Shown in pieces: positions 13,487 to 46,476 of a DNA stretch of 64,000 nt. How positions within the stretch are numbered: position 1 is the stretch's first letter; every line of letters starts with the position of its first letter. The notes below the pieces were generated by a model. It did no database searches. It was not told the DNA's origin and saw nothing but the letters and a program-made list of their open reading frames with translations. The translations under genes were made by a program, and so were the position numbers. Origin of the DNA: Blastocatellia bacterium (GTDB lineage Bacteria > Acidobacteriota > Blastocatellia > RBC074); the NCBI GenBank assembly GCA_043736395.1, contig JAYTCQ010000174.1, forward strand, positions 4,886 to 68,885, in the 5' to 3' direction.

Positions 13487-15730
<2,244 letters not shown>

Positions 15731-15734
<4 letters not shown>

Positions 15735-18700
15735 CGTTCAGCTAACATCCGTTCTGCTTCTTCATCTGACATTTCTTCAAGCTCAGCCAATAATGCCGCC
15801 AGCTCTGCATCTTCGGTTGAAGAAGATAAAATTTCATCAACGACCATCGCCAAGCCTTCGACGGTTGGCACTTCAAATATTTTCCGCAATGGAATTTTTA
15901 CTCCGAATGCATTCTGCAATCGAGCTACGACCTTTGTTGCTAATAATGAATGTCCTCCCAATGAAAAGAAATTATCGTTGATGCTGATTTGCTTCACTTT
16001 CAATAATTCTCCCCAGGTATTCGCTAACATTTCTTCGGTCGGAGTTCTGGGAGCAACGTAAGTCTCATTCTCTTCTCGTCGTGAAGCCTCAGGTTGAGGC
16101 AAAGATTTTCGATCAATTTTTCCATTTGGAGTTAACGGCAACCGCTCCAAACATACGAATGCTGATGGGATCATGTGAACAGGGAGCCGATCCTGAAGCT
16201 GAGCACGTATTTGAGTGGGCTGAATTTTTGATGGCGTGACAACGTAGGCCACCAGCCGCTGATCTCCCGGTTGATCTTCACGAACGATAACGGCGGCATC
16301 ACTAATTTCAGACAAGCGTTTGAGCGCTTCTTCAATTTCACCTGGCTCAATCCGAAAGCCTCTCAACTTCACCTGCGCATCGGCACGCCCCAATAATTCA
16401 ATTGTGCCGTCAGAAAGATAACGACCGAGATCGCCGGAGAAATAAAATTTTTCTGAGGATGAGTGATGGGTGATGGGTGATGAGTTACTCGACACCTGAC
16501 CCCTAACACCTAACACCTGAAACCTCTCCGCCGTTAATTCGGAACGATTCAAATATCCACGTGTGACTCCGTTGCCACCGATGCAAAGCTCTCCCGCAAC
16601 GCCAATGGGGACGATGCATTGATTGCGATCCACAAAATAAATTTTTGTATTGGCAAATGGTTTTCCAATGGGAACCATTCCTTCGCCTTGCAAATCGCTG
16701 GCTTCAAAATAGGTGCTGTCAATCGTCGCTTCCGTCACACCGTACGAATTCACAACTCGCGCTTGCGAGCCACAAAGCCTTCGAAGTTTTCTATATTCCT
16801 CGCGCTGCCACGTGTCGGAGCCTACAACTACCAGCCGCATAAAATCTAGTCGCAAATTACTTTCTTCCAGATGCTCAAGTAATGGACGCATCACTGCCGG
16901 AACAAATTCCGCCGAATCTATTTCTTCTGTCCGCATCAAATCGTACAGGCGATCAGGTTCGAGTAAATAATCTGTCGGACAAATTACCAGCTTTGCGCCA
17001 CTGCAAAGCGCCCGTACAAAATCACCGGTGAAGACATCAAAGGAAAAACTCGCCATTTGTAAATGACTCTTCAGCGATGAAAGTTTGTAAGCCTGCTCCC
17101 ACGCGGCGAATGCATTGACGACGTTGCCGTGCGTCACCATTACACCTTTCGCCTGGCCCGTCGAACCGGAGGTATAAATCACGTACGCCAGATTTTCAGC
17201 ACTCATTTCTGTCTTTAGATTTTTCCCATCAAAAATTTCAGATTGAAAATTTTTATACAGATCGTCCAGATATATCACTTCTGCCGAATGCTCCGGTAAT
17301 CTTTGCTGAAGGTGCTTTTGCGTCAACAAAACTTTAACATTCGCATCACTGAGCATGTGCGCCAGCCGCTCCGCCGGATAGTTCGGGTCAAGCGGTAAAT
17401 AAGCGCCACCAGCTTTGAGAATGGCCAATACCCCAACCACCATTTCGAGCGAACGCTCAACGCACAGACCAACAATCATTTCGGGAGACACACCAAATTT
17501 CAGTAAATGATGCGCTAAAAAATTTGCCCGTTTATTCAATTCTGCATACGTGATTTTTTTTCCGTCGAACGCAACGGCAATGGCTTCAGGCGTACGCGCC
17601 GCTTGTTCCTCAATCAATTGATGCAAAGATAACTTTGGCACTTCAACTGTTGGCGCATTCCAGTTGGATAAAATTTGCTGCGTCTCTTGCGCGGTCAACA
17701 ATGGCAATTGTGAAATTTGCTGAACAGGGTTTTCGACAATTCCCTCCAACAAAATTTCCCATTGCGTCAGCATTCGCTCAGCAGTTTCTGCTGCAAATAA
17801 ATCGCGGTCATATTCCAGCCAGACTTCCAGACCTTCCGGTTTTTCATAGACATCCAAACTCAAATCAAACTTGGCAGTGGTGCTGGCAAACTTCACTGGA
17901 GTCAAACTAATATCTTTCCAATGTGCTGACATATCTGGCGCATTCTGCATTGCAAACATCACTTGGAAAATCGGCGAATAGCTCAAGCTTCGTTCCGGTT
18001 GAAGCGCTTCAACTAATTTTTCAAACGGCATTTCCTGATGCGCATACGCTCCCAGCGCACGTTCACGGGTTCGCTGGAGCAACTCAATAAATTTCGGATC
18101 ACCCTCTAAATTCCCGCACAACGCTAAGGTATTCACAAAAAACCCAATCAGGCTTTCCGTTTCAGTTTTTGGACGTCCGGCAATCGGAGTTCCTACCACG
18201 ACCTGTTCCTGACCGCTGTAGCGCATCAGTAAAACCTGGAACGCAGACAGTAACGTCATATACAAAGTTACGCCTTCACGTTGGCTTAAAGATTTTAGTT
18301 TTTTGAGTAATTTCGCCGATACAAATTTAGAAATTTGCGCACCGCGATATTTCTGTACCGCCGGACGTGGCTTATCTGTTGGCAGTTCCAAAAAGGCGGG
18401 TGCACTACGTAAATGTTCGCGCCAGTAATTCACCTGTTCGGCTAAGATTTCACTTTGTAAATACTCTTGTTGCCAGCACGCATAATCAGCGAATTGAATC
18501 GGCAAATCCGGTAATTGCGAGGAATGGTCATAACCTGTTCCTAATTCATTTAGAAAAATACTTATGGACCAACCATCACTGATAATGTGGTGAAATACGA
18601 TGATTAATAAATGTTCTGATTCGTTGAGCCGGAGCAAATGCAAGCGCCACAAGGGAGTCTGGCTCAAATCAAAAGGCGTTTCAATCGCATGTGAAATCAG

Positions 18701-20908
18701 ACGCATTTTTTCTGCTTGACGATAATCCGCTGAAAAGTTACTAAGGTCAGCTAACGGCAAATCAGCCTGTAAAAATGGGGTAATGCGCTGACTGGCTTGC
18801 CCATTTTCAGAAACAAAACTTGTTCGTAAGATTTCGTGACGATCAACTACGGCTTGCAAGGCTTGCTGCAACGCAGAGACTTCAAGTTTTCCCTTGAGCC
18901 GAATGATTTTGCTTAAATTATACGTGGCCGTGGCCGGCTCTAATTGATCCAGAAACCAGAGGCGCTGTTGTGAAAATGAGAGCGGAATTCCGACCTGCTT
19001 ATTTGTCCGCAACAAGGCCGGGACAAAAACTTTAGAGTTACTTTTTTGAAATTGCGTGATCGCTTCAGCCAAGTCTGCAACTGTTGGAGAATTGAAAATC
19101 GTACTTAACGGCAGTTGTATTTTAAAGTCAGTCCGCAACCTTGAAATTACCTGACCTGCCAATAGTGAATGTCCTCCGATGGCAAAAAAATTATCTCGTC
19201 TGCCCACCCGTTCGCGACCTAAAACTTTAGCCCAGATTGCTGCAATAATTTCTTCTATCGGCGTCTTCGGAGCAAGATAACTATCTTGAATTTGAAGAGA
19301 ATTGGCATCTGGTGCTGGCAGCGCTTTGCGATCAATTTTCCCGTTCGGAGTCAGAGGCAAACCATCAATCTTCACAAAAGCGGCGGGAACCATGTAATCC
19401 GGCAATTCGCGTACGATCAGTTCGCGGAGTTCTTGAAACACTGCCTTTTGGGTTTCAGGTTTTGGGTTTCGGGTGACGATGTAGGCGACCAGCTGCTTGC
19501 GTCCAGGAACGTCTTCACAAGCAATGACAGAGCATTCGCGAACACTCGGATGCCTCATGAGAAATGCTTCGATTTCTCCCAGCTCGACGCGGAAGCCGCG
19601 AATTTTTACTTGAAAATCCTGTCGCCCTAAACACTCCAATTCACCATTCGGCAACCAACGCGCGTAATCGCCGGTAGGGACGCTCGAGTAATGAGTGATG
19701 AGTGATGAGTGATGAGTATCAATACCACGAAACTCAAAATTCGAAATTTGAAATTGTTTTCCGTGAAGATAGCCGCGCCCAACGCCTGCGCCACAAACGT
19801 AAATTTCTCCGGCTTCCCCTTTTGGTACAGGTTGCTGATTTTCGTCGAGTAGAAAAATTTGTGTATTGGCGATGGGGCGTCCGATGGGTATGACTTTTAT
19901 TTCTCCACTCAGCTCAGAAGATTTGATGCGATGCATCGCCACAATCCCGCTGGTTTCGGTTTGCCCCATCATGTGAACGTGCGTCGCGGGATGCTTGAAT
20001 TCATTGATCCAGGTGCTTGGAATATCTGACAGCAAAGGTTCACTGGCAGATAAAATTAACCGCAGATCATTCGCTAATAATTCCTCTCGTTGCGTTTCGG
20101 CAAGCTCTAATAAAGCATTTGTACAATGCCGCTGGAACGAAGGCACCGCATCGAAAACTGTGACGTGATATTTTTTGATTAGGGCGAAAAGCGGAAGCGG
20201 ATCCATCCGCTGTTCTTCATCCGCAATAACGACAGTGGCTCCGTGCGCCAGCGGGAAAAGCAAATGACGACGCGACGACGAAAATCCAATTGAAGCCAGG
20301 TGCAAATAACAATCCTGCGGCGTGAGCTGTAATTCGTTTTGCAGCGCTGTCACATAATGCGTGAGATTGCGCTGCGTCAACATGGTGCCTTTGGGCTTGC
20401 CTGTCGAACCAGAGGTATAAATCAGATAAGACAAATTTTCAGCATTGAGTTGAGCCTGAAGATTTTCTGCGCTGTGTTTTGAAATTTCAGACCAGTCCGT
20501 ATCAAGCGAAACAAACTGAGAATCCGCATTTAAAAACTGAGGCAGCAAGCGCGATTCAGTGACGACGATTGGAGCCGCAGTGTCCGCCAGCATAAATGCG
20601 ATGCGATCTGTCGGGTACGCCGGATCAATCGGCACAAACGCCGATCCTGATTTAAGAATTCCAAGAATGCCAACCGCCATGTCTACGGATCGCCCGACAC
20701 AGATCGGAATCATCACTTCCGGCCCTGCGCCAAGTGATCCTAAATAATGTGCCAATTGATTGGCTCGCTGATTTAGTTCGTTGTAGGTTAGTTGTTGCTG
20801 ATTGCACACGACGGCAACCTGTCGCGGCAGGAGGGCGACTTTCTGCTCAAAGAGTTCGTACCAGCAAGACTCTAGTTTATGCGTTGTGTTTATTTCTTTG
20901 GGTTCCAT
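15731..20908 (-). CDS. non-ribosomal peptide synthetase, two modules: A1-T1-C2-A2-T2 with a C-terminal acidic docking (COM-like) tail; no TE
   Basis: A core motifs appear twice (LSYLIYTSGSTGKPKG / LAYVIYTSGSTGQAKG, GELCIGGNGVTRGYL, GRQDFQVKIRGFRVELGEIE / GRADAQVKLRGFRIEPGEIE, LPLTPNGKIDRK twice). Two PCP motifs (FFAIGGHSLLA and FFSLGGHSLLA). One C domain (HHIISDGWS). The protein starts directly with an A domain (no C) and ends with the acidic tail EDAELAALLAELEEMSDEEAERMLAER. In A1 the Asp235 position reads FSSS instead of FDxS. Confidence 0.9.
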
Positions 20909-21013
20909 TCATTGCTGCTCAAATATTTCTCACGGCTCAGATAAGAAATGACTAATCAACTGGAAATTTCAAATTTGATTTAGGTAACTCCTGTCTGAAC
21001 AAAATCTCGAAAA

Positions 21014-23002
21014 CTAATTAGTGCCTGTTCTAAACCTCCAATGCGGGCTAATCGAAGTGCCGATGCCATCGCTCACCGTGACATACCATTCGTATTCAGT
21101 ATTTGGTCGTAAGCCTGACCAATTCACCGTCGCGGTCGCTCCAGAAATGGCATTCGGATTCGATTTGATAACTGTAAAGCCACTGTCTTGCAGGTTGGAA
21201 TTTAAAGTGAATTGGCTGATCGCCGTCTGATCAAAAATGTTTTGCGTCGGAGAATATGTTTGGACGCGAATTTGATTACTTGCTGGAGATAGCTCCATAA
21301 TTCTAAGCCATCCGTCACCACCATTTTGTAAATTTTGGAAATCAGAAAGTAGCGTGTAAACGGTATTTCCATTGAAAACATCCTGCCTGCGAGCTTCGCC
21401 TGGAACGTGTCCTGTCAGCATTAAAAACAAATTGGAATTTGATTTTAATGCGTCATACGTCGCTCGCCCTTGCGTCGAAAATGAAGCATTCAAATTGAGT
21501 AAATTGTGACTGACAATAATGGCGTGGCGGGTGCTGTAGGTCTTCAGCAAATTATTTGCCCAGCTTAAAATTGCGGTATCCGGGGTTTCGTCAAACTCCA
21601 GATAAATCGTGATGAAATCCATTCCGCCCGCTGAAAATAACTGGTACTGATTATCCAGATTGCCGCCATAACGGCCGCCATAATAATTGCGTTTGTAAAA
21701 CCGCGAAGTCCCGAAATACTGATTGAAAAGTTTGGTCGAAGCTCCGACTGGATTTCCTTCCGGCGACTGATCATGATTTCCAACAGCTACGCCAAAAGGA
21801 AGGCCATCAAGCAAACTGGTCGTGACAGGATTTTCCAATAATTTCATTGCTCCATCCACATTCAACCATTCGCTGACGCTGTCTCCGTGCTCAACACAAT
21901 CGCCCAGATGAGCCACATATCCGATGTTGCGCGCCGTTCGCTGATTCACAATCCATTGTGTTTGCGCAGTGAACATCGCACTCGTTCCGCTAAATAAATT
22001 ACTGGAATAATATTGTGTATCCGGCAACGCAATGAGCGAAAAAGTCGCTCCTGTCGTTCCGGCAATTTTCCCGTAATACGTCACAATCAAGTTGTCATTT
22101 TCAGGATCAGAAACTGATACACTTAAGTTCGGATTCGTTGGGACATTAATTGAATTATTCGACGGAGCATTGAGCGTTGCGATCACAGGATTTTGATTGC
22201 CCACAAAATTTATTCCGCTTGTCCACAGCCAATTGGAACCGCGCAAAGTGCCGTTAAGATTGCGTCCGCTTGAATCCGCAATCCTCGTTCCGCTTCCATC
22301 ATTTAATGCCCAACGCGCAATCAATCCAGTCGTGACGGAAAGTTGTTGACGCATTCCATCAATAATTTGTGAGACGGGACGCGCATAATTCCACAGACGA
22401 ACTTCATCCAGTGTACCGGCAAAAAATCCTTCAGCGACTCCGGTTGAATTCAGAGCCGAAGCCAACGCGGTGTGCTGAATGCTATCGTTCCTGGCCGATA
22501 GCCCAACATTGATTTCAGCCTCCAAATTTCCATTGAGGTAAAGCCGAAAGATTTGGCCGTTGTATGAAACTGCGGCGTGGTACCACGTGTTATAACGCAC
22601 CGGCGTGACTCCGCGCAGGGGATGATTTCCGCCCAATGGTTTATCTTCAAAATCCGCAGCCAGCACACCAGTAGAGTTATCAATGCCCAAAAAATAATTC
22701 ATATCCACAGTGCTGCCGTCATCTTCGCCGCGTCCTTTGGTTACCAGAGGAATCGCACTCAAGCCACCATTACCAGTAAAAGTCGGTTGACCGATTCCAG
22801 TGCGACGAAACCATGTTTCTACCGTGAAGGACGAAAATCCCAGCTGGCTTGGAGTCCCGAAAGTAACGTAATCCCCTGACCCACTGAATGAAAGCGCATC
22901 CGTTCTTTGAAATGGTGGTTTCGCAGAAAAAATATTTAGTGTAAAACCACAGATCAAAACGAACGCAAAATTCCATCGTAGTTTTTGTTTCATACAATTC
23001 AA
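21014..23002 (-). CDS. secreted LamG/concanavalin-A-like lectin domain fused to calcineurin-like metallophosphoesterase
   Basis: Signal peptide. The N-terminal ~250 aa fit a LamG-like jelly-roll (YNTWYHAAVSYNGQIFRLYLNG, AGTLDEVRLWNYARPVSQI). The metallophosphatase motifs are GDCVEHGDS, GNHD and IIVSHN..GH. Confidence 0.7.
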   Translation of the reverse strand: MNCMKQKLRWNFAFVLICGFTLNIFSAKPPFQRTDALSFSGSGDYVTFGTPSQLGFSSFTVETWFRRTGIGQPTFTGNGGLSAIPLVTKGRGEDDGSTVDMNYFLGIDNSTGVLAADFEDKPLGGNHPLRGVTPVRYNTWYHAAVSYNGQIFRLYLNGNLEAEINVGLSARNDSIQHTALASALNSTGVAEGFFAGTLDEVRLWNYARPVSQIIDGMRQQLSVTTGLIARWALNDGSGTRIADSSGRNLNGTLRGSNWLWTSGINFVGNQNPVIATLNAPSNNSINVPTNPNLSVSVSDPENDNLIVTYYGKIAGTTGATFSLIALPDTQYYSSNLFSGTSAMFTAQTQWIVNQRTARNIGYVAHLGDCVEHGDSVSEWLNVDGAMKLLENPVTTSLLDGLPFGVAVGNHDQSPEGNPVGASTKLFNQYFGTSRFYKRNYYGGRYGGNLDNQYQLFSAGGMDFITIYLEFDETPDTAILSWANNLLKTYSTRHAIIVSHNLLNLNASFSTQGRATYDALKSNSNLFLMLTGHVPGEARRQDVFNGNTVYTLLSDFQNLQNGGDGWLRIMELSPASNQIRVQTYSPTQNIFDQTAISQFTLNSNLQDSGFTVIKSNPNAISGATATVNWSGLRPNTEYEWYVTVSDGIGTSISPHWRFRTGTN

Positions 23003-23005
23003 TTC

Positions 23006-23914
23006 TTACGCCTGCGGTTCCTTATCAAGCCTGAGCAAATAACCGGTTTTACGTTTCAAATCTGTTTGAATTGAAACATAAATACCGTCCTGATCATCCA
23101 TTGTGATCCCGCAAATATTGCTTAATTTTCCGCCCAGCACAGCTATCGTTTTGACGCCTTCTTCAGGTGTATAGCGCATCAGTTTTCCGTGGCTGCTATC
23201 AGTGATGTACAGCACATGATTGGCATACCAAATCGTTTCCGGGGAAAATCCCTCACGGTTTTCGATCAACCGTTGCAGCTTCATTTCAGGCGTCAGGACA
23301 TACACAATCTGGTCTTCGTTGTCGGCGATATAAAGATTGCCTTTTTCATCAAAGACCATACTTTCCGGCTTCGTGATTCCATATCCCGGTCCCAGAAAAA
23401 CGGTTACTTCTCCGGTGCGGCTCACGCTAAAAACCTGATGCCGGACGCCGTCGCCAACGAGGATCGCACCTGAAGGAGACAACGCGATTCCTTCCGTTGA
23501 AACCAATCCTTTTTCCCTGCCCGCCAGCAGAAAAGCTTTCCCATTTTTATCCACCTCCCAGACACCACCCGCATCGTCATCCGTGAAAAAAATATTGCCT
23601 TCCGCGTCCATCACTAAATCTTCAGGAGATTGAATTCCGAGTGTCGTATCGCATAACGTTTTGACATCTTTCGCATCGTGCCAGATTCGTAATGCGCCGC
23701 CTGCCTCATCCGCCATGATTAGCTTCCCCTGTCGCCACAAAATTCCATCGGCGACTTCAAAGCCGTCGTGATTCGTTGCAATCACCGTCGCGCGATAATC
23801 AGGGTCAGTCAGCATCACCATTCCCTTTTGATCAAGCCCGCAGGAATTCATCAAAAAGACACAAAGAAAAATTGCTGCCAGCTTTGAGATTTTATTAATG
23901 TGAGGAATTGTCAT
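23006..23914 (-). CDS. NHL-repeat / SMP-30-gluconolactonase-like beta-propeller lipoprotein
   Basis: Lipobox LMNSCG after the signal peptide. Repeated blade signatures (GNIFFTDDDAGGVWEV, GNLYIADNEDQIVYVL, HVLYITDSSHGKLMRY, DGIYVSIQTD) typical of NHL/SGL six-bladed propellers. Confidence 0.6.
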   Translation of the reverse strand: MTIPHINKISKLAAIFLCVFLMNSCGLDQKGMVMLTDPDYRATVIATNHDGFEVADGILWRQGKLIMADEAGGALRIWHDAKDVKTLCDTTLGIQSPEDLVMDAEGNIFFTDDDAGGVWEVDKNGKAFLLAGREKGLVSTEGIALSPSGAILVGDGVRHQVFSVSRTGEVTVFLGPGYGITKPESMVFDEKGNLYIADNEDQIVYVLTPEMKLQRLIENREGFSPETIWYANHVLYITDSSHGKLMRYTPEEGVKTIAVLGGKLSNICGITMDDQDGIYVSIQTDLKRKTGYLLRLDKEPQA

Positions 23915-24783
23915 AACTGGCCTTTGATAATGTGCTTCCCGATCGCCATTCCTGCTTTGAGCAATGGTCGAAGATTTTGCAGTGTGTTCGCCACTTCAAA
24001 AATAGTGATAAAAATTAACGCGCTGGATAACCCCTGATGCTGTAAAGTCCATTTGGTAATGGGATCAAGCAACTTCCGAAATCCTTTTCCGACGATCAAC
24101 TGAATCAGCAGCAGGATGATAATTCCGATGCCGCCGCCGACTATGACATCCAACGGAGAATGCTGACCGGTGATGACACGGCTGCCCATAATCACAAAGA
24201 CTGTCCACGCGATGGCGATGCTTCCAATTCGTCGTGAAGCCAGCCAGATTCCAACCGCCAACGTTAAATAAAAGCCGGCGTGATCGCTTGGAAATGATCC
24301 AAGATCATTCTGAAAAACTTCACCTTTTTGCAGCGCCTGAAAACCTTTCTGACTCTCATCGTCCAACGGCACACGAAAAGCTAATTTCTGGCTTTCGACT
24401 AACTGATCGCCTTCCAGATGAAACGCCTTCTGCGATTGAATGAATGGACGCGGCAGAAAAACTGTTTTGGAAATGGTCTTCGTCGTAGCGATAACAAAAA
24501 CCGCCGCGAGCAAGGTCAACAAAAGAATTTTTCGCTGGCGGACAATTTCTGCTTCTTCACCCCGCCCAAACCAGACAGCAACAAAACATCCACCCACGAT
24601 GGCAGCCTTGACCAACTGATTTTCAAGCGGCAACGTCAATAAAGTATCAAGCACCCAGGAATGCCCGACGACACTATTGAGAAGTTCATACAAGTAATCG
24701 CTGGCAGATGTCAGAGTGGTGAGGAGTACATTATTCACAATTTTCTTCTCCTGTTTTTTCAAGCTTTGCTTTGGCCAGAGCAA
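23911..24783 (-). CDS. PAP2 family (type 2 phosphatidic acid / undecaprenyl-PP phosphatase-like) membrane phosphatase
   Basis: PAP2 motifs: PSDH (FPSDHAGF) and SRxxxxxHxxxD (GSRVITGQHSPLDV), with multiple TM helices. The N-terminal 17 codons overlap the 3' end of the upstream NRPS gene, so the true start may be a downstream non-ATG codon. Confidence 0.75.
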   Translation of the reverse strand: MLWPKQSLKKQEKKIVNNVLLTTLTSASDYLYELLNSVVGHSWVLDTLLTLPLENQLVKAAIVGGCFVAVWFGRGEEAEIVRQRKILLLTLLAAVFVIATTKTISKTVFLPRPFIQSQKAFHLEGDQLVESQKLAFRVPLDDESQKGFQALQKGEVFQNDLGSFPSDHAGFYLTLAVGIWLASRRIGSIAIAWTVFVIMGSRVITGQHSPLDVIVGGGIGIIILLLIQLIVGKGFRKLLDPITKWTLQHQGLSSALIFITIFEVANTLQNLRPLLKAGMAIGKHIIKGQL

Positions 24784-27700
24784 GGGTTAGTTGTCGCGCC
24801 AATTCCTGCACGTGCGGTTCTTTGATGATTGTTTGGTGATCGCCTGGCAGGCGGATAATTTCAACGCCACCCGCTGCGAGCGCCTGCCATCCCGTAATAT
24901 TTTCGGCGACGCTGACTTCTTCTTCCGCGCAGAAAAATGTCACTTTTCCGGCATACACTTGCGGGACATATTTTTTAACGGCGAGGTAATTTATCTCTTC
25001 AATTTTCCGTAAAATTTCAGCTAGTGGCTGATTAGAATTTTGGGTAATTTTTTCCGTCAACTGCCACCAAATATTTTTCAGCTTTCGGGTTTTAAATTGC
25101 GCTTTGCTCAAAATGTAATGGGCTTTACCGTGCAGATTAAGCGATGCCAGATTACGGCAATGCTGTTTGATGCGAAGGCGTAAAAATTTCTTTTGATACT
25201 CTTTGGCTTCCGCTTCTGAAAATAATTTCAACCAGCCCAGCGGATATGTATCAAGCATCGCCAACAATGCAACTCGCTCTCCCTGATCGTGAAGTTGTCG
25301 CGCCATCTCAAAAGCAACTGACCCGCCAAACGAACGTCCACCTAAATAATAAGGGCCGTACGGTTGCAGTTGACGTATTTCAGAAATGTAATGCGCAGCC
25401 ATTTCTGCGATATTGGTCAGCGGCGCAGTTTGTCCGTCGAGGCCTACTGCCTGCAATCCATAAAATGGATGCTCGGAATCGAAGTGCTGAACGATGCTGT
25501 TATATTCCAGCACGTTTCCGCCCACTGCATGCACACAGAAAAATGGAGCCGCCGTTCCGCTTGGACGCAGCGGTACTAACGAATTCCACGAAGGCTCCCA
25601 GCCTTGTTCACGTAACATTTCAGCCAACTGCTCAATCGTTGGAGATTGAAATAAAACAGCGAGTGGTAATTGCTTGCCAAAGGCCTGTTGAATCGCACTG
25701 AAAAGTCGAACCGCAATTAATGAATGCCCACCCAGCTCAAAGAAATTATCGCGGACGCCAATCGGATGAATTCCCAAAACTTCTTGCCAGATATTGATGA
25801 GGCGCACTTCCAGTTCGTCTTTTGCCGCGACTAATTCCTGTTTAGTTTCAGTCAACAATTGATCCGCTTTGGGCAATTTTTTGCGATCAACTTTTCCATT
25901 CGGCGTCAGTGGAAATTGCTCCAGGTGAACCCATGCGGAAGGAACCATGTATTCCGGCAATCGCTGCTTTAAAAATTCGCGCAGATCACTCACCAACAAA
26001 GGCTCAACGGCGACATAGTAAGCAATTAATTTTTTATCGTTTTTATTCGTGTCTACCTGTAAGACAACTTCCTGAATAGACGGATGTGCAAGCAATGCAT
26101 TTTCGATTTCTCCCAGCTCAATGCGAAAGCCGCGCAATTTAATCTGATGATCTTTTCGACCAATGAATTCAATGGTTCCGTCAGGAAGATAGCGCGCAAT
26201 ATCTCCGGTTTTATAAAAGCGCGTGGCAGGTGTGAGGTGTCGGGTTTCAGCAAACCTAACACCTGACACCCGAAACCTGTCACCTGTTAATTCCGGTTGA
26301 TTCAGATATTCACGCGCCAGACCATCACCGCCGATATAAATTTCGCCATGAACTCCCATAGGAACCGGATTCATATAACGATCCAAAATATGAATCGTAG
26401 TTCTGGAGATCGGGCGTCCGAGAGGAATTGATCCTTCACCTACATTTTCGATGAGATGCCACGTCGCAAACGTAGTGCTTTCGGTGGGGCCATAACCATT
26501 TACCAAACGCTCCGGCGATCCATTTTTGAGCACCTCGCGACAACAGCCTGGGTCGCAGGCGTCGCCACCGATAATCAATGTTTTCAGGGTTGCAAAAGCG
26601 GTGGGAACTTCACGCGACAACAGATTAAAAAGCGCCGTTGTCAGGAACATGACCGTAATTTTTTGTTCTCGTAATTGCGCGGCAAATTCGTGTGGTGACA
26701 GCGCAATGTCTTTGTTGATAAGCACCAGCCTGCCGCCGTTCAATAGCGCGCCCCACAGTTCAAAAGTTGCGGCATCAAATGAAATATTCGAGACCTGCGC
26801 CATCGCATCTGAACTGTCCAGATGAACGTAATTTGTATTGATAACCAAACGACTGACGCCACGATGAACAATCGCTGAGCCTTTCGGCTGTCCCGTTGAA
26901 CCCGAGGTATAAATCACGTACGCCAAATCTTCAGATTTATTCAGATTCGTGAGATTTTTATCATTTTGCTCAGGGAATATACCTTTTTCATCCAGACAAA
27001 TTATTTGAGCAGTTGTTTCAGGCAATCGTGACCGCAATGATAACTGTGTCAAAATCACCGGCGCGTTTGCATCGTTAAGCATGAACTCTAAACGCACTTG
27101 CGGATAAGCCGGATCAAGCGGCAAATAGGCTCCACCCGCTTTTAGAATTCCCAACACACCAATCACCATTTCTACACTGCGATCTGTGAAAAGTCCGACT
27201 AACGTATCTGGTTTTATTCCTGTTTCGCGCAGAGCGTGCGCTACGTGATTTGCGCGGCGATTCAGTTCGCGGTAGCTGACATTTACTTCACCTGAAACAA
27301 TGGCAACGGCATCAGGCGTGCGATCCACCTGTGCTTCAAATAATTGATGCAGACACAAATCTTTTGGGTAATCAGTGGCGGTGTCATTCCACTCAACCAA
27401 AATTTGCTGAAGCTCTGCCGCACTCAAAAAAGGCAGCTCGGACAAACGTTGTTGAGGATCGGTGACGATTCCTTCGAGCAGGTTTTGATAGTGCTGCAGC
27501 AATCGCTGCATCGTTGCTTCATCAAACAAATCGGTGCTGTATTCAATGGTCGTCTGCAATCCATCAGCGGTTTCGCTGACCGATAAAAACAAATCGAACT
27601 TTGAGGTCACCGCACTAATTTTATAAGGGCGAAGTTGCAAGCCCGGAATTTTCACCGATGAGGTTGTCTCAGGCTGTAACGCAAAAGCCGTTTGAAAAAT

Positions 27701-28855
27701 CGGGTTATGACTGAGGCTTCGTTCGGGGCGAAGTTCAGCGACTAATTTTTCAAACGGAAAATCCTGATTGGAAAAAGCGTCTAAGGTCGTTTCTTTGATT
27801 CTTCGCAGTACTTCACAAAAGGTTGGATTCCCTGACAGGTCAGCGCGAAGCACCAACGTATTCACAAAAAAACCAATTAAAGATTCTGTCTCAGTCCGCG
27901 TTCGTCCTGCCACCGGAGCGCCCACGACCAAATCATCCTGATCGGTATAACGCGCCAGCAAAACATTAAATGCCCCCAGCAAAGTCATGAACATGGTCAC
28001 GCCTTCTTTTCGGTTCAAGGCTTTGAGTTCATTTTGCAGGCCAGCGGAAAACACGCTGGAAATTTGCGCGCCTCGAAAACTTTGCACGGCTGGCCGCGGT
28101 CGGTCGGTCGGAAATTCAAGCAAAGCTGGAGCACCTGCCAGCTGTTTTTTCCAATACTGAAGTTGCTGTTTGGAATCTTGTTCCTGCTGAAGTGACCAGG
28201 CAGCGTAGTCTCCAAATTGAATCGAAAGCTCCGTCAACTGTGGCTTATTTTGTTGTGCGTAATCAAAATAAAGCTGCGCAAATTCGTTCCAGAAAATACC
28301 GAGTGACGATCCATCGCTAACGATGTGGTGAACCGTCAAAAACAAAATATGTTCCTGTTCATCCAGTTTGACGAGGACAAAATTTAAGAGACAATTCTCC
28401 AGAGAAATTGGGTGAGCGGCTTCTTCCGACAAGAATTTTAAAGTCTCCGCTTCACGCACCTCCGGCGGGTATTCGCTGAAATCTTTCCAGCTCAATGGTA
28501 GCGATTGTGAATCTGAAATTTTCTGTTTCGGCGCTCCATCAATCTCTATAAATGTGGTTCTCAATGCATCGTGACGCGCAAAGATTTTTTCCAGTGCTTT
28601 TTGCAAAGCCTCTTGATTCAGCGTTCCGCTAAGCCTCATCGCATCAGTAAGATTGTAGGTCGAAGCGGAAGGATTTAATTGCGATAGAAACAAGAGGCTT
28701 TGTTGATTAAAAGTAAGCGGCGCAATGAATCTATCAGCACGAAGTGGAATCGCGGTATTTTGTTGAGGCGCGCGATTTCTTTCACGCAATTTCTTTTCAA
28801 GCAAAATGCGCTTAGCGGCGGAAAGCTCCTCAATTCTTTGTGTCAACTGCGTCAT
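24731..28855 (-). CDS. non-ribosomal peptide synthetase termination module: N-terminal basic docking helix - C - A - T - TE
   Basis: N-terminus MTQLTQRIEELSAAKRILLEKKLRERNRA (COM-like, basic). C domain with HHIVSDGSS. A motifs (LAYVIYTSGSTGQPKG, NGYGPTE, GEIYIGGDGLAREYL, GRKDHQIKLRGFRIELGEIE, LPEYMVPS, NGKVDRK). PCP FFELGGHSLIAVRL. Thioesterase with PFFCVHAVGGNVLEY and the GRSFGG nucleophile elbow. Confidence 0.9.
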   Translation of the reverse strand: MTQLTQRIEELSAAKRILLEKKLRERNRAPQQNTAIPLRADRFIAPLTFNQQSLLFLSQLNPSASTYNLTDAMRLSGTLNQEALQKALEKIFARHDALRTTFIEIDGAPKQKISDSQSLPLSWKDFSEYPPEVREAETLKFLSEEAAHPISLENCLLNFVLVKLDEQEHILFLTVHHIVSDGSSLGIFWNEFAQLYFDYAQQNKPQLTELSIQFGDYAAWSLQQEQDSKQQLQYWKKQLAGAPALLEFPTDRPRPAVQSFRGAQISSVFSAGLQNELKALNRKEGVTMFMTLLGAFNVLLARYTDQDDLVVGAPVAGRTRTETESLIGFFVNTLVLRADLSGNPTFCEVLRRIKETTLDAFSNQDFPFEKLVAELRPERSLSHNPIFQTAFALQPETTSSVKIPGLQLRPYKISAVTSKFDLFLSVSETADGLQTTIEYSTDLFDEATMQRLLQHYQNLLEGIVTDPQQRLSELPFLSAAELQQILVEWNDTATDYPKDLCLHQLFEAQVDRTPDAVAIVSGEVNVSYRELNRRANHVAHALRETGIKPDTLVGLFTDRSVEMVIGVLGILKAGGAYLPLDPAYPQVRLEFMLNDANAPVILTQLSLRSRLPETTAQIICLDEKGIFPEQNDKNLTNLNKSEDLAYVIYTSGSTGQPKGSAIVHRGVSRLVINTNYVHLDSSDAMAQVSNISFDAATFELWGALLNGGRLVLINKDIALSPHEFAAQLREQKITVMFLTTALFNLLSREVPTAFATLKTLIIGGDACDPGCCREVLKNGSPERLVNGYGPTESTTFATWHLIENVGEGSIPLGRPISRTTIHILDRYMNPVPMGVHGEIYIGGDGLAREYLNQPELTGDRFRVSGVRFAETRHLTPATRFYKTGDIARYLPDGTIEFIGRKDHQIKLRGFRIELGEIENALLAHPSIQEVVLQVDTNKNDKKLIAYYVAVEPLLVSDLREFLKQRLPEYMVPSAWVHLEQFPLTPNGKVDRKKLPKADQLLTETKQELVAAKDELEVRLINIWQEVLGIHPIGVRDNFFELGGHSLIAVRLFSAIQQAFGKQLPLAVLFQSPTIEQLAEMLREQGWEPSWNSLVPLRPSGTAAPFFCVHAVGGNVLEYNSIVQHFDSEHPFYGLQAVGLDGQTAPLTNIAEMAAHYISEIRQLQPYGPYYLGGRSFGGSVAFEMARQLHDQGERVALLAMLDTYPLGWLKLFSEAEAKEYQKKFLRLRIKQHCRNLASLNLHGKAHYILSKAQFKTRKLKNIWWQLTEKITQNSNQPLAEILRKIEEINYLAVKKYVPQVYAGKVTFFCAEEEVSVAENITGWQALAAGGVEIIRLPGDHQTIIKEPHVQELARQLTLALAKAKLEKTGEENCE

Positions 28856-28870
28856 TCTGAATTTATTTCA

Positions 28871-31603
28871 TCAAACAGCTTGGCCTGATTGAATATCCTT
28901 TCGATTTAATCGTTTATTGAGTTGTTCGGCTAAGAGTTTCACGTTGGAGCTTTGAATCATGCTTTGATGATTGCCCGGAACTTCGACAACTTCGACTCCA
29001 CCTGTTGCAAGAGATTGCCAACCAAACTGATTTTCCAGAGAACTGACCTCTTCGGTCGCAGAAAAGTATGTAATTCGATCTGGATAAGCGCGAGGAATAT
29101 ATTTTTTGGCTGCCGAATAATTGAATTCCTCAATGTTGCGCAATGTATCTGATAAAGGCATTTCTTCACTTTGATTGAATTTTCGGCTCACCTGCCATTG
29201 CCATGTTTCAACTTTACGTTTCTTGTAATTGGCCTTTTCCAGGAAATAAGAAATTTTCCCTTTCCAGTTAAATTGCTGAACATTCGCCAAATGCCGCTGA
29301 ATTCGAATGAGTAAAAAGCGCGTTTGATATTTCAATGTAATGCCGCGCGAAAACCGTTTCAGCCAACCAATCGGGTCGGTATCAAGCAATGCCACCAGCG
29401 CAACCTCCTGATTTTGTTCGCGGAGCTGTTGCGCCATTTCATAAGCTACGACGCCTCCAAACGACCGTCCACCAAGTTGATAAGGGCCATTCGGTTGCAG
29501 TTGCCGCAGCTCTTTAATGTATTGCGACGCCATCGCTTCGATACTGGTCAGCGGTTGCCGCTTGCCGTCTAATCCCACCGATTGCAAACCGTAGAATGGT
29601 TGATCGGACGGCATCTGCTGCGCGAGTTCGTAATACTCAAGCACATTGCCGCCAACAGCGTGAACACAAAAGAATGGGGTCTTATCTCCCTTTGGTTGTA
29701 ATGGAACCAAAGAAGTCCACAACAATTGTTCGTCCTGCGTTTGGAGAAAAATTGCCAATTGCCGAATCGTTGGAGATTGAAACAAGGTCACGAGCGGCAG
29801 CCGTTTGCCAAAATTAATTTCAAGCTCAGCAAAGATGCGAACCGCCAATAACGAATGGCCTCCCAGCTCAAAAAAATTGTCTGTGACACTAATCGGATGA
29901 AGGTGCAAAGCGGCTTCCCAAATTTCAACCAGCCTGGCTTCAATCTTATTATCGGCAATCACTACGTCATCTTTGTCACGGTCATTGATGACGGCTTCTG
30001 GCGCGGGTAATTGCTTCCGATCAATTTTTCCATTTGGCGAAAGCGGAAGCGAATCCAGCCTGATGAATAAAGATGGAACCATGTAATCCGGCAATTTTTG
30101 ACTGAGATGATGACGAAGCTCTTCATTCTTCGGCGCATCAATTCCTCCCACATAATAGGTCACCAAACGCTTGTTACCGGAGGCGTCCTCGCCTGCCACG
30201 ACTACACATTCACGAATCAAATGATGCTGCGATAAAACTGTTTCGATTTCTCCGAGTTCAATGCGATGACCGCGAATTTTGACTTGAAAATCCATTCGGC
30301 CTAAACACTCCAGCACGCCATCAGGATGGAGACGCGCAAGGTCACCGGTGCGGTAAACGCGAGTGCCGGGGAATGAGTGCTGAGTTATGAGTGCTAAGTT
30401 AGCTGACTCTTGAAACTTCTCAGATGTTAGCTCTGCTCTATTTAAATATCCTCGCGCTAATCCAATCCCCCCAATTAACAGCTCTCCTGCTGTTCCGGTT
30501 GGCATTGGATTGAAGTTTTCATCCACAATAAAAATCTGGTAATTCGTGATTGGTCGTCCAATCGGCACAAAGTTTCGCTTGGTCTCGCGTTCGCAATCCC
30601 AATACGTGCATTCAACGGATGCTTCGGTCGGACCATATAAATTATGCAGTCCGATGTGTCGCGGCATACGCGCAAAAAAGCGTTGTTGAAGGGTGAACGG
30701 TAACGGTTCTCCGCTGCAAAAAATATGCTGAAGGGAATCACTTCTATGAAAACTTTCGTCTTCTAACAGCATCTGCAATTGCGAAGGAACCATGAATAAA
30801 GTTGAGATTTTTTCGCGCTGGATCAATTCAATTAAATAAGCGCCATCCTTCTGTCCACCGGGCGCTGCAATCACTAATCTGGCTCCAGCGATCAAGGGGG
30901 AAAAGAATTCATACAAAGACAGATCAAAGCTGAATGGAGTCTTCAATAAGACCGCGTCTTCTGTGCTCAGCGGAAATTGATTTTGCATCCATTGCAATTG
31001 ATTACAAATCCCGCGATGCTCAATCATGACGCCTTTGGGATTGCCCGTTGATCCCGATGTATAAATCACATACGCCAGATTTGAAGGCTTCGCTCCACTC
31101 TCAAAATTAGCTTCGCTTTCCTGATTAATTTCTGCCGTGTCCAGACAAATGACTTGGGAATTATTGGCTGGTAAAGATGCCAGCAAGTCATTTTGCGTCA
31201 ATAAAACCGGGACTCCGGCATCACTCATCATAAAAGCGATGCGGTCTGCCGGGTAGTCAGGATCAAGTGGAACATACGCGCCTCCGGCTTTGAGAATGCC
31301 GTACATCGCAATCACCATTTCAGGCGAACGCTCCATAAAAATCCCGACCAATGTTTCCGGTGTCACGCCGATTCTTTTTAAATAATGTGCCACTTGATTG
31401 GCACGATGATTGAATTCCTGATACGTCAGAATTTTGTCGTCGAAAATAAGTGCAGGTAAGTGAGGAGTTTTTTTGACCTGTGCTTCGAACAGTTGATGCA
31501 GGCAGGCTTCGCCTGAACTGACAATATTTTCAAAGTCAGCCTGCACCTGATTTTCTCGATGTAAACTAATTGCTTTCATTTTCCTCTCACCTGTTTTTGC
31601 CAT
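28871..31603 (-). CDS. stand-alone NRPS-like A - T - TE tridomain protein
   Basis: Starts within an A domain (LTYQEFNHRANQVAHYL). A motifs (LAYVIYTSGSTGNPKG, FSFDLSLYEFF, NLYGPTE, GELLIGGIGLARGYL, GRMDFQVKIRGHRIELGEIE, NGKIDRK). PCP FFELGGHSLLAVRIF. TE PFFCVHAVGGNVLEY..GGRSFGG, paralogous to the TE of the upstream gene. No C domain. Confidence 0.9.
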   Translation of the reverse strand: MAKTGERKMKAISLHRENQVQADFENIVSSGEACLHQLFEAQVKKTPHLPALIFDDKILTYQEFNHRANQVAHYLKRIGVTPETLVGIFMERSPEMVIAMYGILKAGGAYVPLDPDYPADRIAFMMSDAGVPVLLTQNDLLASLPANNSQVICLDTAEINQESEANFESGAKPSNLAYVIYTSGSTGNPKGVMIEHRGICNQLQWMQNQFPLSTEDAVLLKTPFSFDLSLYEFFSPLIAGARLVIAAPGGQKDGAYLIELIQREKISTLFMVPSQLQMLLEDESFHRSDSLQHIFCSGEPLPFTLQQRFFARMPRHIGLHNLYGPTEASVECTYWDCERETKRNFVPIGRPITNYQIFIVDENFNPMPTGTAGELLIGGIGLARGYLNRAELTSEKFQESANLALITQHSFPGTRVYRTGDLARLHPDGVLECLGRMDFQVKIRGHRIELGEIETVLSQHHLIRECVVVAGEDASGNKRLVTYYVGGIDAPKNEELRHHLSQKLPDYMVPSLFIRLDSLPLSPNGKIDRKQLPAPEAVINDRDKDDVVIADNKIEARLVEIWEAALHLHPISVTDNFFELGGHSLLAVRIFAELEINFGKRLPLVTLFQSPTIRQLAIFLQTQDEQLLWTSLVPLQPKGDKTPFFCVHAVGGNVLEYYELAQQMPSDQPFYGLQSVGLDGKRQPLTSIEAMASQYIKELRQLQPNGPYQLGGRSFGGVVAYEMAQQLREQNQEVALVALLDTDPIGWLKRFSRGITLKYQTRFLLIRIQRHLANVQQFNWKGKISYFLEKANYKKRKVETWQWQVSRKFNQSEEMPLSDTLRNIEEFNYSAAKKYIPRAYPDRITYFSATEEVSSLENQFGWQSLATGGVEVVEVPGNHQSMIQSSNVKLLAEQLNKRLNRKDIQSGQAV

Positions 31604-31620: not shown

Positions 31621-32829
31621 TTATGAGGCGACTGAAAATTCCTTAACTCCTTCGGAAATATTTCTTTTGATTTTCTGCAATTCCGGCTGACAGGAAGCGG
31701 GTGCCACCTGACTTAAAAATTCCAGCATGCGACCGGCAAAAACCGGGTAAGAAAATTTTTCGGCATGCTGACGCAGTACACGTTGCGACCAACGATAATC
31801 TTCAAATTGCTCAATGGCTTCGGATAAAGATTGGCTGGTGGGATGCTTAAAAAATAATCCAGTCAAACCATCGGCAACGGTTTCCAGCGCTCCGCCTGCA
31901 CCGTAGGCAACCACGGGACGCCCAGCAGCATTGATCTCAAGTGGGGTCATCCCAAAATCTTCTTCACCGGGAAATAACAAAGCGCGGCAATGGCTGGCAT
32001 AATAATTCACGACGTCATCGGGCTGTCGCCCTAAGAATTTAACCGTCGGGCCAGCCATTGCTTCCAAGCGCTGCCGATCTGGACCATCGCCGATGACGAC
32101 CAATTCACGATTCATTTTCGTGCAGGCCTGAATCGCGAGGTCAATGCGTTTATAGGGAACGAGCCGTGACAAGATCAAAAAATAATCTTCCACGTGATTG
32201 CTGGGCTGGAATCGGCCTACGTCAATCGGAGGTGGAATCACGACCGATTCACGTTCATAAATTTGTTTGATTCGATCAGCCACTATTTGCGAGTTCGCGA
32301 TGTAATAATCCGGTTGACGCGCAGCGCGACGATCCCACGCACGTAATCCCGCGAGCATTGCAGGCAACACAGCCCGCGCCGCGCCGCTAAAGGCTTCACG
32401 TTCGGCATAATCGTCATACCGCCAAACCCATCGCATCGGAGTATGGCAATAACAAACATGCACCGCATTTTTCGCACGACGGACGCCTTTGCCATAGCCA
32501 GAACTGCTGCTGACAATTAGCTCATGTTCTGATAAATCCAGACTTTCGACAGCGAACGGATAGAGCCAAAAATACTGGCGGAATTTGCTTTCCACCGCTG
32601 GCATTTTCTGCATGAAGGAAGTGCGAATTTCTTTCGTGCGTAATCTTTCCGGCAAGCGATGCTCAAGCGCAACCGTCGCGTACATCGGAGCCGCTGGAAA
32701 GATTTGCGATAAGGCTTCCGCCACTTTTTCCGCTCCGCCCATCTGGACGAAATAATCATGTACTAAAGCTATTCGGGGCATCCTGAGTGATCCTTTTTTC
32801 GGTAGTAGTTCGTGTTTGCGATGCAACAC
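31621..32829 (-). CDS. GT4 family glycosyltransferase (start probably at the internal MPRIALVHDYF Met, ~32781)
   Basis: IALVHDYFVQMGGAEKV (GT4 N-terminal donor-binding start) and a C-terminal E..G...LE-type region (FGMTPLEINAAGRPVVAYGAGGALETV). Confidence 0.75.
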   Translation of the reverse strand: MLHRKHELLPKKGSLRMPRIALVHDYFVQMGGAEKVAEALSQIFPAAPMYATVALEHRLPERLRTKEIRTSFMQKMPAVESKFRQYFWLYPFAVESLDLSEHELIVSSSSGYGKGVRRAKNAVHVCYCHTPMRWVWRYDDYAEREAFSGAARAVLPAMLAGLRAWDRRAARQPDYYIANSQIVADRIKQIYERESVVIPPPIDVGRFQPSNHVEDYFLILSRLVPYKRIDLAIQACTKMNRELVVIGDGPDRQRLEAMAGPTVKFLGRQPDDVVNYYASHCRALLFPGEEDFGMTPLEINAAGRPVVAYGAGGALETVADGLTGLFFKHPTSQSLSEAIEQFEDYRWSQRVLRQHAEKFSYPVFAGRMLEFLSQVAPASCQPELQKIKRNISEGVKEFSVAS

Positions 32830-35440: not shown

Positions 35441-35456
35441 TTCCCTTTTATCTTTC

Positions 35457-46459: not shown

Positions 46460-46476
46460 AAACACTAAGTGGCAAC
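46460..46476 (-). promoter_or_regulatory. perfectly palindromic sigma-54 -24/-12-type element (TGGCAA-N5-TTGCCA), read identically on both strands
   Basis: tggcaactttattgcca gives GG and GC at the canonical 10-nt spacing on both strands. It lies between the EPS operon start (45868) and the stop of the sigma-54 activator gene (46606). A second weaker element occurs on the minus strand (TGGCACgcagaTTGAt, rc of 46353-46371). Confidence 0.45.

Follow-up and report, generated by a model that had tools for sequence, protein, structure and literature searches.

A 64,000-nucleotide stretch of contig JAYTCQ010000174.1 from an uncultured soil Blastocatellia bacterium (assembly GCA_043736395.1), here called the window, carries a nonribosomal peptide synthetase (NRPS) made up of three proteins, NRPS-A, NRPS-B, and NRPS-C. 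Together with its own phosphopantetheinyl transferase, a PAP2-family phosphatase, and an SGL/NHL lipoprotein, this synthetase is nested within one Wzx/Wzy polysaccharide operon (Table 1). The explanation that best fits the findings, and that we consider fairly probable as a whole, is that NRPS-C docks onto NRPS-B to form a three-module line, that NRPS-A is an accessory to this line, and that the product may be coupled to the polysaccharide pathway. NRPS-C is likely the upstream subunit, with its acidic two-helix tail binding a basic helix-turn-helix at the start of NRPS-B; the line likely assembles a starter acid, then ornithine, and then a valine-like residue; and the thioesterase (TE) domain of NRPS-B likely releases a capped, cationic three-unit chain.

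Domain architecture and the probable NRPS-C/NRPS-B junction

Domain calls were made with Pfam, on 33 open reading frames (ORFs) of the window, and with NCBIfam. With A, T, and C denoting adenylation, carrier, and condensation domains, the Pfam order in NRPS-C is AMP-binding, PP-binding, Condensation (residues 640 to 1080), AMP-binding (1100 to 1453), and PP-binding (1628 to 1687), i.e., A-T-C-A-T. NRPS-B reads Condensation (45 to 486), AMP-binding (506 to 851), PP-binding (1018 to 1081), and Thioesterase (1104 to 1356), and NRPS-A reads AMP-binding (39 to 387), PP-binding (557 to 619), and Thioesterase (643 to 898), with no C domain. The E-values of the NRPS domains ranged from 1e-14 to 1e-169, far beyond chance. 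The catalytic motifs are intact, with HHxxxDG in both C domains (HHIISDG at residue 773 of NRPS-C), GGHS in all four T domains (residues 578 and 1651 of NRPS-C), and GxSxG in both TE domains, each of which also has conserved Asp and His motifs besides the catalytic Ser. An earlier reading of this DNA, made from the letters alone (the sequence-only reading), had proposed the orders A-T-C-A-T, C-A-T-TE, and A-T-TE at the minus-strand coordinates given in Table 1, and Pfam bore these out. The strings that it quoted, namely, the acidic NRPS-C tail, the NRPS-B N terminus MTQLTQRIEELSAAKRILLEKKLRERNRA, and both PFFCVHAVGGNVLEY and GGRSFGG in the two TE domains, were all present, and the transcription order that it gave (A, B, and then, after three further genes, C) was correct.

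The same reading had docked NRPS-C onto NRPS-B, and sequence comparisons and structural models indicate that this is very probably so. NRPS-C has no release domain, and NRPS-B is the only NRPS of the window with an N-terminal C domain. The tail motif LLAELExxSEEEAxxLL was found in all 16 complete NRPS-C orthologues, whatever their length, and the motif QRIExLSPAKRALLExxLRE was found at the N terminus of every NRPS-B orthologue examined, with I8, L11, S12, K15, R16, L18, L19, and L23 invariant in the alignment. Each of the two motifs occurred once in a six-frame translation of the 64-kb window. AlphaFold2 placed two helices in the NRPS-C tail (residues 1698 to 1712 and 1715 to 1723, separated by an M-S turn) after the four-helix T2 domain. 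At the start of NRPS-B, it placed helices at residues 2 to 9 and 13 to 28, separated by an E-L-S turn and followed by a disordered linker (residues 29 to 43), with a predicted local distance difference test (pLDDT) score of 51 to 69. The model of NRPS-B residues 1 to 495 is poor (pLDDT of 62), with residues 1 to 28 forming a separate helix-turn-helix that the linker joins to the C domain.

Two distant relatives carry the motif pair on adjacent, colinear genes. In locus L035, the protein that ends in the tail motif is A-T-C-A-T, and the next gene encodes a C-A-T protein that begins with the N-terminal motif. In locus L037, an A-T-C-A-T-C-A-T protein has the tail motif at its end, and the C-T-TE protein encoded by the next gene opens with the N-terminal motif. 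These arrangements support the order NRPS-C and then NRPS-B, and the reversed gene order in Blastocatellia would therefore be a matter of genome history and not of mechanism. The noncolinear order pointed out in the sequence-only reading is real and is conserved in Blastocatellia, but there was no sign that it has mechanistic meaning, and related loci are colinear. Among 358 retrieved NRPS proteins, the N-terminal motif was found at 20 N termini, with at most three internal occurrences, and so it appears to be common at the starts of unrelated multimodule synthetases.

The class of the docking elements was also considered. The COM (communication-mediating) domains of Hahn and Stachelhaus, the label used in the sequence-only reading, are defined at E/C junctions, where the donor lies at the C terminus of an epimerization (E) domain (PMC9113145); their acceptor is a helix-hand motif partly built from C-domain strands. 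The docking junction of the PAX system runs from a peptidyl carrier protein (PCP) to a C domain (PMC9113145). Because the donor in NRPS-C follows a T domain and no E domain is present in the three proteins, COM was the wrong class. The NRPS-C tail and the NRPS-B N terminus are more likely helical docking elements of the type-2 and PAX (3HBa) class (CurG/CurH, 4MYY; PaxB/PaxC, 6TRP; PaxA/PaxB, 7B2B). As in that class, an acidic element of two predicted helices comes straight after a carrier domain and a basic, predicted helical element comes just before the first domain of the next subunit, and, as in PAX, the junction is PCP to C. Cognate pairs of the class bind each other physically and specifically, at micromolar affinity; for the present pair, the neighboring colinear genes of L035 and L037 lend indirect support to such binding. 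The ELExxSEEE..LL core of the tail aligns with the PaxB sequence ELENLSEEELLAMLN, and in a Foldseek search, the match of longest coverage was PaxA T1-CDD (7B2B; TM score of 0.70). The I8/L11/L19/K22 spacing in NRPS-B, the first three of these residues being invariant, equals that of I18/L21/L29/K32 in CurH (PMC11221535). The tail positions i, i+3, i+8, and i+12, numbered as in the same study, are L, M, A, and L, such that three of the four are bulky hydrophobic residues and one of the four conserved hydrophobic positions is Ala, a difference from the known pairs. The present pair also differs in being read from sequence and models only and in its host, which is an acidobacterium; the type-2 class has been described mainly from cyanobacteria, myxobacteria, and Xenorhabdus (PMC11221535).

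Predicted substrates and product

The check proposed in the sequence-only reading, namely, extraction of Stachelhaus codes by alignment to GrsA-PheA, was run; the control code DAWTIAAICK was recovered, and codes were read for all four A domains. The code of the starter domain (A1), SSRDLAMGIK, lacks Asp235, the residue that binds the alpha-amino group, and its pocket instead presents Ser, Ser, Arg, and Asp. The starter would therefore not be a normal alpha-amino acid, and Arg239, together with the polar character of the pocket, may point to an acid that bears another anionic or polar group. The A1 motif I[GA]FSSSRR was conserved in 17 retrieved proteins, and the code was identical in the distant loci L035 and L037, at a domain identity of only 48 to 60%. 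The possibility that A1 is a fatty-acyl-AMP ligase was rejected, since its best PDB matches are true NRPS A domains (LgrA and ApnA A1), its A3, A8, and A10 motifs are normal, and its pocket is polar.

The A2 code, DVGEVGSIDK, matches the ornithine signature DVGEIGSIDK (PMC3992020) at 9 of 10 positions, and its orthologues keep DVG[ED]x[GV]SIDK. The code of the NRPS-B A domain, DAFFIGGTFK, is valine-like, and L035 has DAFWLGGTFK at the same position. Here, DAFWIGGTFK is what we take to be the valine code, and the lysine, aminoadipate, and gamma-glutamate codes used for comparison were likewise presumed; when the code strings were sought in the literature, the ornithine code alone was confirmed. 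The C domain of NRPS-B is LCL-like, scoring 272 bits to TycC5-6 versus 111 bits to SrfA-C and 105 bits to TycB1, and this L-donor type fits the absence of an epimerase. The product of the line is thus likely a capped X-Orn-Val chain, made up of a starter other than an alpha-amino acid, ornithine, and a valine-like residue. The three-residue product of the sequence-only reading therefore stood as a three-unit line, but its first unit as an ordinary amino acid did not, given the absence of Asp235 from A1. The fourth code, that of NRPS-A, is DLYFFSLVEK, which was conserved in 24 of 29 orthologues.

Probable reduction of NRPS-C among relatives

Comparison of NRPS-C orthologues (P0121 to P0140 and others) revealed two length classes. 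Close orthologues (78 to 100% identity) and one distant orthologue, P0203 (60%), are approximately 1715 to 1751 amino acids (aa) long and have the order A-T-C-A-T. Most of the orthologues at 56 to 62% identity are 2223 to 2325 aa long, or 2675 to 2710 aa when fused to Wzx, and carry one C-T module more, and P0157 (1962 aa) is a long form with a frameshift. This additional C-T (L010, L011, L013, and P0126 to P0136) lies at the C-terminal end and lacks an A domain, with its HHxxxDG and GGHS motifs intact, and at the same position L035 has a full C-A-T with what we take to be a lysine-like code. In two of the four long forms compared, the T2 domain and tail of the window protein found their best match in the third T domain and tail, which suggests that an internal stretch was deleted and the docking tail was kept. 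The line of the window is thus likely a shortened form, with relatives keeping one more module as C-A-T or as A-less C-T, and the relatives would form a natural module-reduction series that runs from C-A-T to an A-less C-T and then to no module.

Association with the polysaccharide genes

From 45868 to 14922, every gene is on the minus strand and neighboring genes are separated by -71 to 131 bp; the start of the phosphopantetheinyl transferase gene overlaps the stop of the NRPS-C gene by 4 bp. The Wzx/Wzy set, like that of known exopolysaccharide loci, is complete for a priming phosphoglycosyltransferase, Wzx, a Wzy-like protein, two Wzz/PCP-like proteins, and two GT4 glycosyltransferases. The locus differs from those loci in that a multimodule NRPS is interleaved and in that no OPX/Wza export gene was recognized; there was no Poly_export-type match among the window ORFs scanned, although such a gene may lie outside the window. 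Those ORFs included no further synthetase genes, and all matches to XrtA/PEP-CTERM family models in the window were below the cutoffs. Exact matches and close relatives of the window proteins came from Blastocatellia metagenome-assembled genomes.

The interleaved order was found in at least nine Blastocatellia loci at 55 to 90% identity (L003/L010, L005/L011, L006/L036, L008, L012, L013, and L017), and in every Blastocatellia locus complete enough to judge, the synthetase genes are interleaved with the only Wzx gene of the cluster. In a Pyrinomonadaceae sub-lineage (P0132, P0138, and P0140), Wzx is fused N-terminally to A-T-C-A-T-C-T through a linker of approximately 3 aa. The usual topology of Wzx places its C terminus in the cytoplasm, which would suit such a fusion. 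The fusion locus L031 (10001 to 18133) lacks NRPS-A and the LamG-phosphoesterase gene and adds a polysaccharide deacetylase gene and a FemAB-like gene. In the distant locus L035, the Wzx gene lies directly upstream of the synthetase, with Wzy, priming transferase, and Wzz genes adjoining. The Wzx gene of the window itself lies between two GT4 genes, whereas in every relative examined, including L006/L036 (80 to 92% identical), it lies between the LamG-phosphoesterase gene and NRPS-C; moreover, the window Wzx is only approximately 68% identical to that of L006. This suggests that the window gene was relocated or replaced.

A different arrangement was found in L037 and L038 (JGI 3300060351 and 3300061213). 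There, a three-module synthetase with the starter code SSRDLAMGIK comes immediately after PAP2 and SGL genes and is itself followed by a C-T-TE or C-A-T-TE protein, and a separate A-T protein ends in the docking-tail motif; no Wzx, Wzy, or glycosyltransferase genes were found within 10 kb of this set. Therefore, PAP2 and SGL appear to belong to the synthetase, and the cassette can stand alone. From these comparisons of loci, we conclude that an NRPS cassette was probably captured into the operon in Blastocatellia. The LamG-phosphoesterase gene adjoins the synthetase in most Blastocatellia loci examined. It was rejected as a marker of the system outside Blastocatellia, as BLAST found no synthetase near its homologues in Chitinophagaceae, Dehalococcoidia, Anaerolineae, Verrucomicrobia, and Paenibacillus, and the gene therefore appears to be a lineage-specific addition.

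The existence of sets such as those of L037 and L038, with PAP2, SGL, an identical A1 code, and a terminal TE module but no nearby sugar genes, is what would be expected if the synthetase genes were a self-contained small-peptide cluster that is simply cotranscribed with the polysaccharide operon. Both TEs would then hydrolyze, the free peptide and amino acid product would be exported, and PAP2, SGL, and the LamG-phosphoesterase would act in extracytoplasmic maturation or self-protection. In keeping with this, the cluster has its own phosphopantetheinyl transferase, and the PAP2, SGL, and LamG proteins are membrane bound or secreted; BcrC, a PAP2 phosphatase, protects the bacitracin producer. 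Such independence is nevertheless hard to square with the interleaving around the only Wzx gene in at least nine loci, with the Wzx-synthetase fusion proteins, and with the adjoining Wzx gene in L035, and a hydrolyzing A-T-TE protein would merely cycle free amino acid at the cost of ATP. We regard a self-contained cluster as possible but rather unlikely.

Dlt (teichoic acid D-alanylation) and AlmEFG (glycine on Vibrio lipid A) each use an adenylating enzyme and a carrier to put amino acids on an envelope glycopolymer or glycolipid. The addition of amino acids, and hence of positive charge, to an envelope glycan provides a working analogy for an NRPS in a polysaccharide operon. These systems differ from the present one in that their A and carrier proteins are free-standing and work with dedicated membrane transferases, with no C or TE domains and no multiunit chain, and no DltB/DltD or AlmG homologue was seen in the Pfam and NCBIfam scans of the window proteins.

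In a separate observation, locus L033 (P0112; ENA ERZ26165376; 3203 to 4897 and 10001 to 14458) encodes a family-2 glycosyltransferase that continues into the C-terminal half of a C domain and then into A-T-TE. The N-terminal half of a C domain is found in a nearby 564-aa protein, together with an A fragment and a T domain, and methyltransferase, GT4, Wzy, and GT4 genes separate the two proteins. This apparent sugar transferase/synthetase fusion was treated with caution, as the locus gives the impression of a synthetase gene that inserted sugar genes have split within a C domain.

NRPS-A as a probable accessory protein

The two TE domains, which the sequence-only reading had called paralogous, are 53% identical over 270 aa; the T domains of NRPS-A and NRPS-B are 56% identical, and their A domains are only 43% identical. 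A neighbor-joining tree of 80 TE domains placed the orthologues of the NRPS-A TE and those of the NRPS-B TE in two sister clades, and therefore the duplication would predate the divergence of these Blastocatellia. The two TEs thus appear to be old in-cluster paralogues, and the T-TE part of NRPS-A may have arisen by duplication of that of NRPS-B. The NRPS-A gene is absent from L017 and L031, both of which keep NRPS-B, and L031 also keeps NRPS-C (the L017 contig ends before the NRPS-C position). It is absent also from L035, L037, and L038. On the basis of these absences, NRPS-A would therefore be a lineage-specific, optional accessory, and it may well stand outside the line. Distant NRPS-A orthologues (L003, L005, L008, and L012) were observed to start with ML(V/I/D)R(L/P)(N/T)E(G/Q/E), a motif that the window protein and that of L006 lack.

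By analogy with FrsA, Sln9, and MysE, NRPS-A may load one amino acid, which its TE may pass to an acceptor; this acceptor could be the peptide, e.g., the free delta-amine of ornithine, or one that is common to the TE of NRPS-B. FrsA and Sln9 are second TE-bearing units whose TEs, most closely related to the TE of the main line, couple the product of the unit to the main product (PMC7794379), and in the shinorine pathway, MysE (Ava_3855) is loaded with serine, which it joins to an acceptor that is made separately (PMC10666671). With these precedents, the self-loading, self-releasing unit of the sequence-only reading is plausible. Its "unusual logic," on the other hand, was overstated, since two TE-bearing NRPS systems per cluster with paralogous TEs had already been described (PMC7794379). 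The present cluster resembles those of FrsA (FR900359) and Sln9 (salinamide) in having two such systems, an accessory single module, and an accessory TE that is closest to the main-line TE. It differs in that FrsA N-acylates its amino acid and possesses a starter C domain for this, whereas NRPS-A has no C domain; in that the Frs duplicates are young and almost identical in DNA sequence, whereas the paralogues here are only 53% identical; and in that TE transfer to a product hydroxyl belongs to FrsA and Sln9, transfer by NRPS-A being proposed by analogy.

MysE is, like NRPS-A, a stand-alone bacterial A-T-TE protein, and the two are 46% identical over 95% of their length (P0116, which is Ava_3855) and 53% identical in the A domain. 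However, NRPS-A was rejected as a MysE orthologue on gene context, code, and TE phylogeny. The MysE gene (P0116) adjoins dehydroquinate synthase (DHQS)-like (MysA), O-methyltransferase (MysB), and ATP-grasp (MysC) genes, none of which is present in the window; the serine code of MysE is DVWHISLIDK, compared to DLYFFSLVEK in NRPS-A; and the MysE TEs fall in a distant, cyanobacterial clade. Cyanobacterial C-A-T-TE proteins of that clade also occur in mycosporine-like amino acid clusters, as in L034 (Gloeothece citriformis PCC 7424; P0090), where the neighbors are DHQS-like and O-methyltransferase genes, a 452-aa gene with no Pfam match, and a sodium:solute symporter gene.

Two further roles for NRPS-A were weighed. 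The NRPS-A and NRPS-B genes are 15 bp apart, and in L032 (1 to 4858; P0243; GCA_009612815.1) A-T-TE and C-A-T-TE read as one 2319-aa ORF with no intervening stop, as would suit a gene order equal to the biosynthetic order, with NRPS-A starting a two-unit chain on NRPS-B and NRPS-C making something else. We consider this improbable. NRPS-A lacks a docking tail, and its T domain is separated from the C domain of NRPS-B by a TE; NRPS-C would be left without a release domain and with an orphan docking tail; loci without NRPS-A still carry NRPS-B, and B-type and C-type genes occur together in L031, L035, and L038; and colinear relatives put A-T-C-A-T upstream of the TE module. The L032 junction itself keeps the NRPS-B docking motif MRPLTQRIENLSPAKR, start Met included. 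That single ORF may be either a genuine fusion or an artifact of sequencing, and it would argue for the proximity of the two enzymes and not for NRPS-A feeding NRPS-B. The other role, in which NRPS-A lends its A domain in trans to an A-less carrier domain, would find targets in the A-less C-T with intact motifs that ends most distant NRPS-C orthologues and in the A-less C-T-TE of L037, but it is very improbable and was rejected for this window, because NRPS-A is kept in the window and its close relatives even though these contain no A-less module and because L031 has an A-less C-T with no NRPS-A nearby; the T and TE domains of NRPS-A are, moreover, intact.

Regulator and feature coordinates

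A gene for a sigma-54 activator, a candidate regulator, lies upstream of the gene run across a 737-bp gap. Within this gap are two sigma-54-like sites (TGGCAC-N5-TTGC, one mismatch each) on the minus strand at 46357 to 46371 and 46472 to 46486. Over the whole window, 87 such sites were found versus 71 expected, which is not significant; the position of the two sites alone is noteworthy, and this is suggestive of a role for them.

Table 1. Coordinates of the synthetase, polysaccharide, and regulatory features of the window
Feature	Position	Strand	Basis or remark
NRPS-C, 1725 aa, A1-T1-C1-A2-T2 plus docking tail; predicted initiation and first elongation module	15731-20908	-	Pfam
A1 adenylation domain, NRPS-C residues ~20-531	19316-20851	-	Alignment to GrsA-PheA
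A2 adenylation domain, NRPS-C residues ~1100-1610	16079-17611	-	Alignment to GrsA-PheA
Putative C-terminal docking domain of NRPS-C, residues 1698-1725	15734-15817	-	Two short predicted helices; net charge -9
NRPS-B, 1374 aa, docking domain then C-A-T-TE; predicted termination module	24731-28855	-	Pfam
Putative N-terminal docking domain of NRPS-B, residues 1-28	28772-28855	-	Predicted helix-turn-helix; net charge +4
NRPS-B TE, residues 1104-1356	24788-25546	-	Pfam Thioesterase, 5e-30; GRSFG at residue 1173
NRPS-A, 910 aa, A-T-TE	28871-31603	-	Pfam
NRPS-A TE, residues 643-898	28910-29677	-	Pfam Thioesterase; GRSFG at residue 712
Sfp/HetI-type phosphopantetheinyl transferase	14922-15734	-	Pfam ACPS, AASDHPPT_N; NCBIfam HetI, 196 bits
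Secreted LamG plus calcineurin-like metallophosphoesterase protein	21014-23002	-	Pfam; Sec-type signal peptide
SGL/NHL beta-propeller lipoprotein	23006-23914	-	Pfam SGL/NHL/SSL_N; lipoprotein-type signal ...FLMNSC
PAP2-family membrane phosphatase	23911-24783	-	Pfam PAP2; weak NCBIfam undecaprenyl-diphosphate phosphatase and PgpB; at least 3 hydrophobic segments
GT4 glycosyltransferase	31621-32829	-	Pfam/NCBIfam
Wzx flippase	32860-34158	-	Pfam/NCBIfam
GT4 glycosyltransferase	34214-35527	-	Pfam/NCBIfam
Wzy-like protein	35457-36974	-	Wzy_C 29.9 bits, just under the Pfam cutoff of 31.7; at least 12 hydrophobic segments
Secreted GSDH-PKD-PA14 protein	36993-40106	-	Pfam/NCBIfam
Priming polyprenyl glycosylphosphotransferase	40238-41671	-	TIGR03025, 409 bits, above cutoff
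Wzz/GNVR chain-length protein	41798-43312	-	Pfam/NCBIfam
Kinase-like protein, 354 aa	43309-44373	-	Pfam, no match; NCBIfam, weak match to the tyrosine-autokinase domain of polysaccharide systems
Wzz-like chain-length protein	44408-45868	-	Pfam/NCBIfam
TPR-containing sigma-54 activator, candidate regulator	46606-49560	-	Pfam Sigma54_activat, HTH_8

Discussion

Several observations weigh against the explanation favored here, that of a docked line with an accessory NRPS-A and a link to the polysaccharide. With respect to docking, the model of the N-terminal element of NRPS-B is of low confidence; the profile of the N-terminal motif gave only chance matches in the PDB (e.g., peptide deformylase and flagellin) and no docking structure; and the match of the tail profile to the PaxB docking domain in 6TRP, which ranked 4th among 19 distinct sequences at an E-value of 10 or less, is not significant alone (E = 0.21). 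With respect to substrates, code positions 299 and 301 shift between alignments, and the A1 and NRPS-A codes give no substrate assignment. The single NRPS-A/NRPS-B ORF of L032 speaks against the independence of NRPS-A, TE sequences cannot separate a hydrolyzing TE from a transferring one, and the sets of L037 and L038 occur without the sugar genes that a glycan link would call for.

The link to the polysaccharide is also where the favored explanation is most tentative. In Blastocatellia, the product of the line might be coupled to the polysaccharide pathway by being exported with, or attached to, the lipid-linked repeat unit that Wzx flips. A more specific version, which we put forward as a speculative possibility and would not ourselves expect to hold, is that the TEs transfer the capped Orn-Val chain (NRPS-B) and a single amino acid (NRPS-A) onto hydroxyls of the undecaprenyl-diphosphate-linked repeat unit on the inner side of the membrane, after which Wzx would flip the unit and Wzy would polymerize it. 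PAP2 and the secreted phosphoesterase would then act on the lipid-diphosphate carrier outside the cytoplasm, and the result would be a polysaccharide with nonribosomal, positively charged peptide side chains. The sequence-only reading had named the lipid-linked glycan as a possible acceptor and made little of, or missed, the nesting in the operon, the Wzx-NRPS fusions, the lost module, the optional nature of NRPS-A, and the constant company of the PAP2 and SGL genes with the synthetase.

The enzyme logic of this system is known piece by piece, both for a split line with helical docking and for a single-module unit with a duplicated TE, and what makes it interesting is the polysaccharide setting, the unusual starter domain, and the series of module losses and not the domain order. 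Literature searches for synthetases of Blastocatellia or within Wzx/Wzy loci found nothing relevant. What appears to be new is the conservation, in a family of uncultured soil Acidobacteriota, of a multimodule NRPS within a Wzx/Wzy operon, together with a flippase-synthetase fusion in one sub-lineage, a starter A domain that lacks the alpha-amino-binding residue and has a code identical across distant relatives, and the module-reduction series of the relatives. If the peptide ends up on the polymer, the system would represent a new way of decorating bacterial surface polysaccharides; if it does not, these bacteria would still possess a compact cassette for a new capped cationic peptide, with portable docking pairs and a natural case study of module loss.

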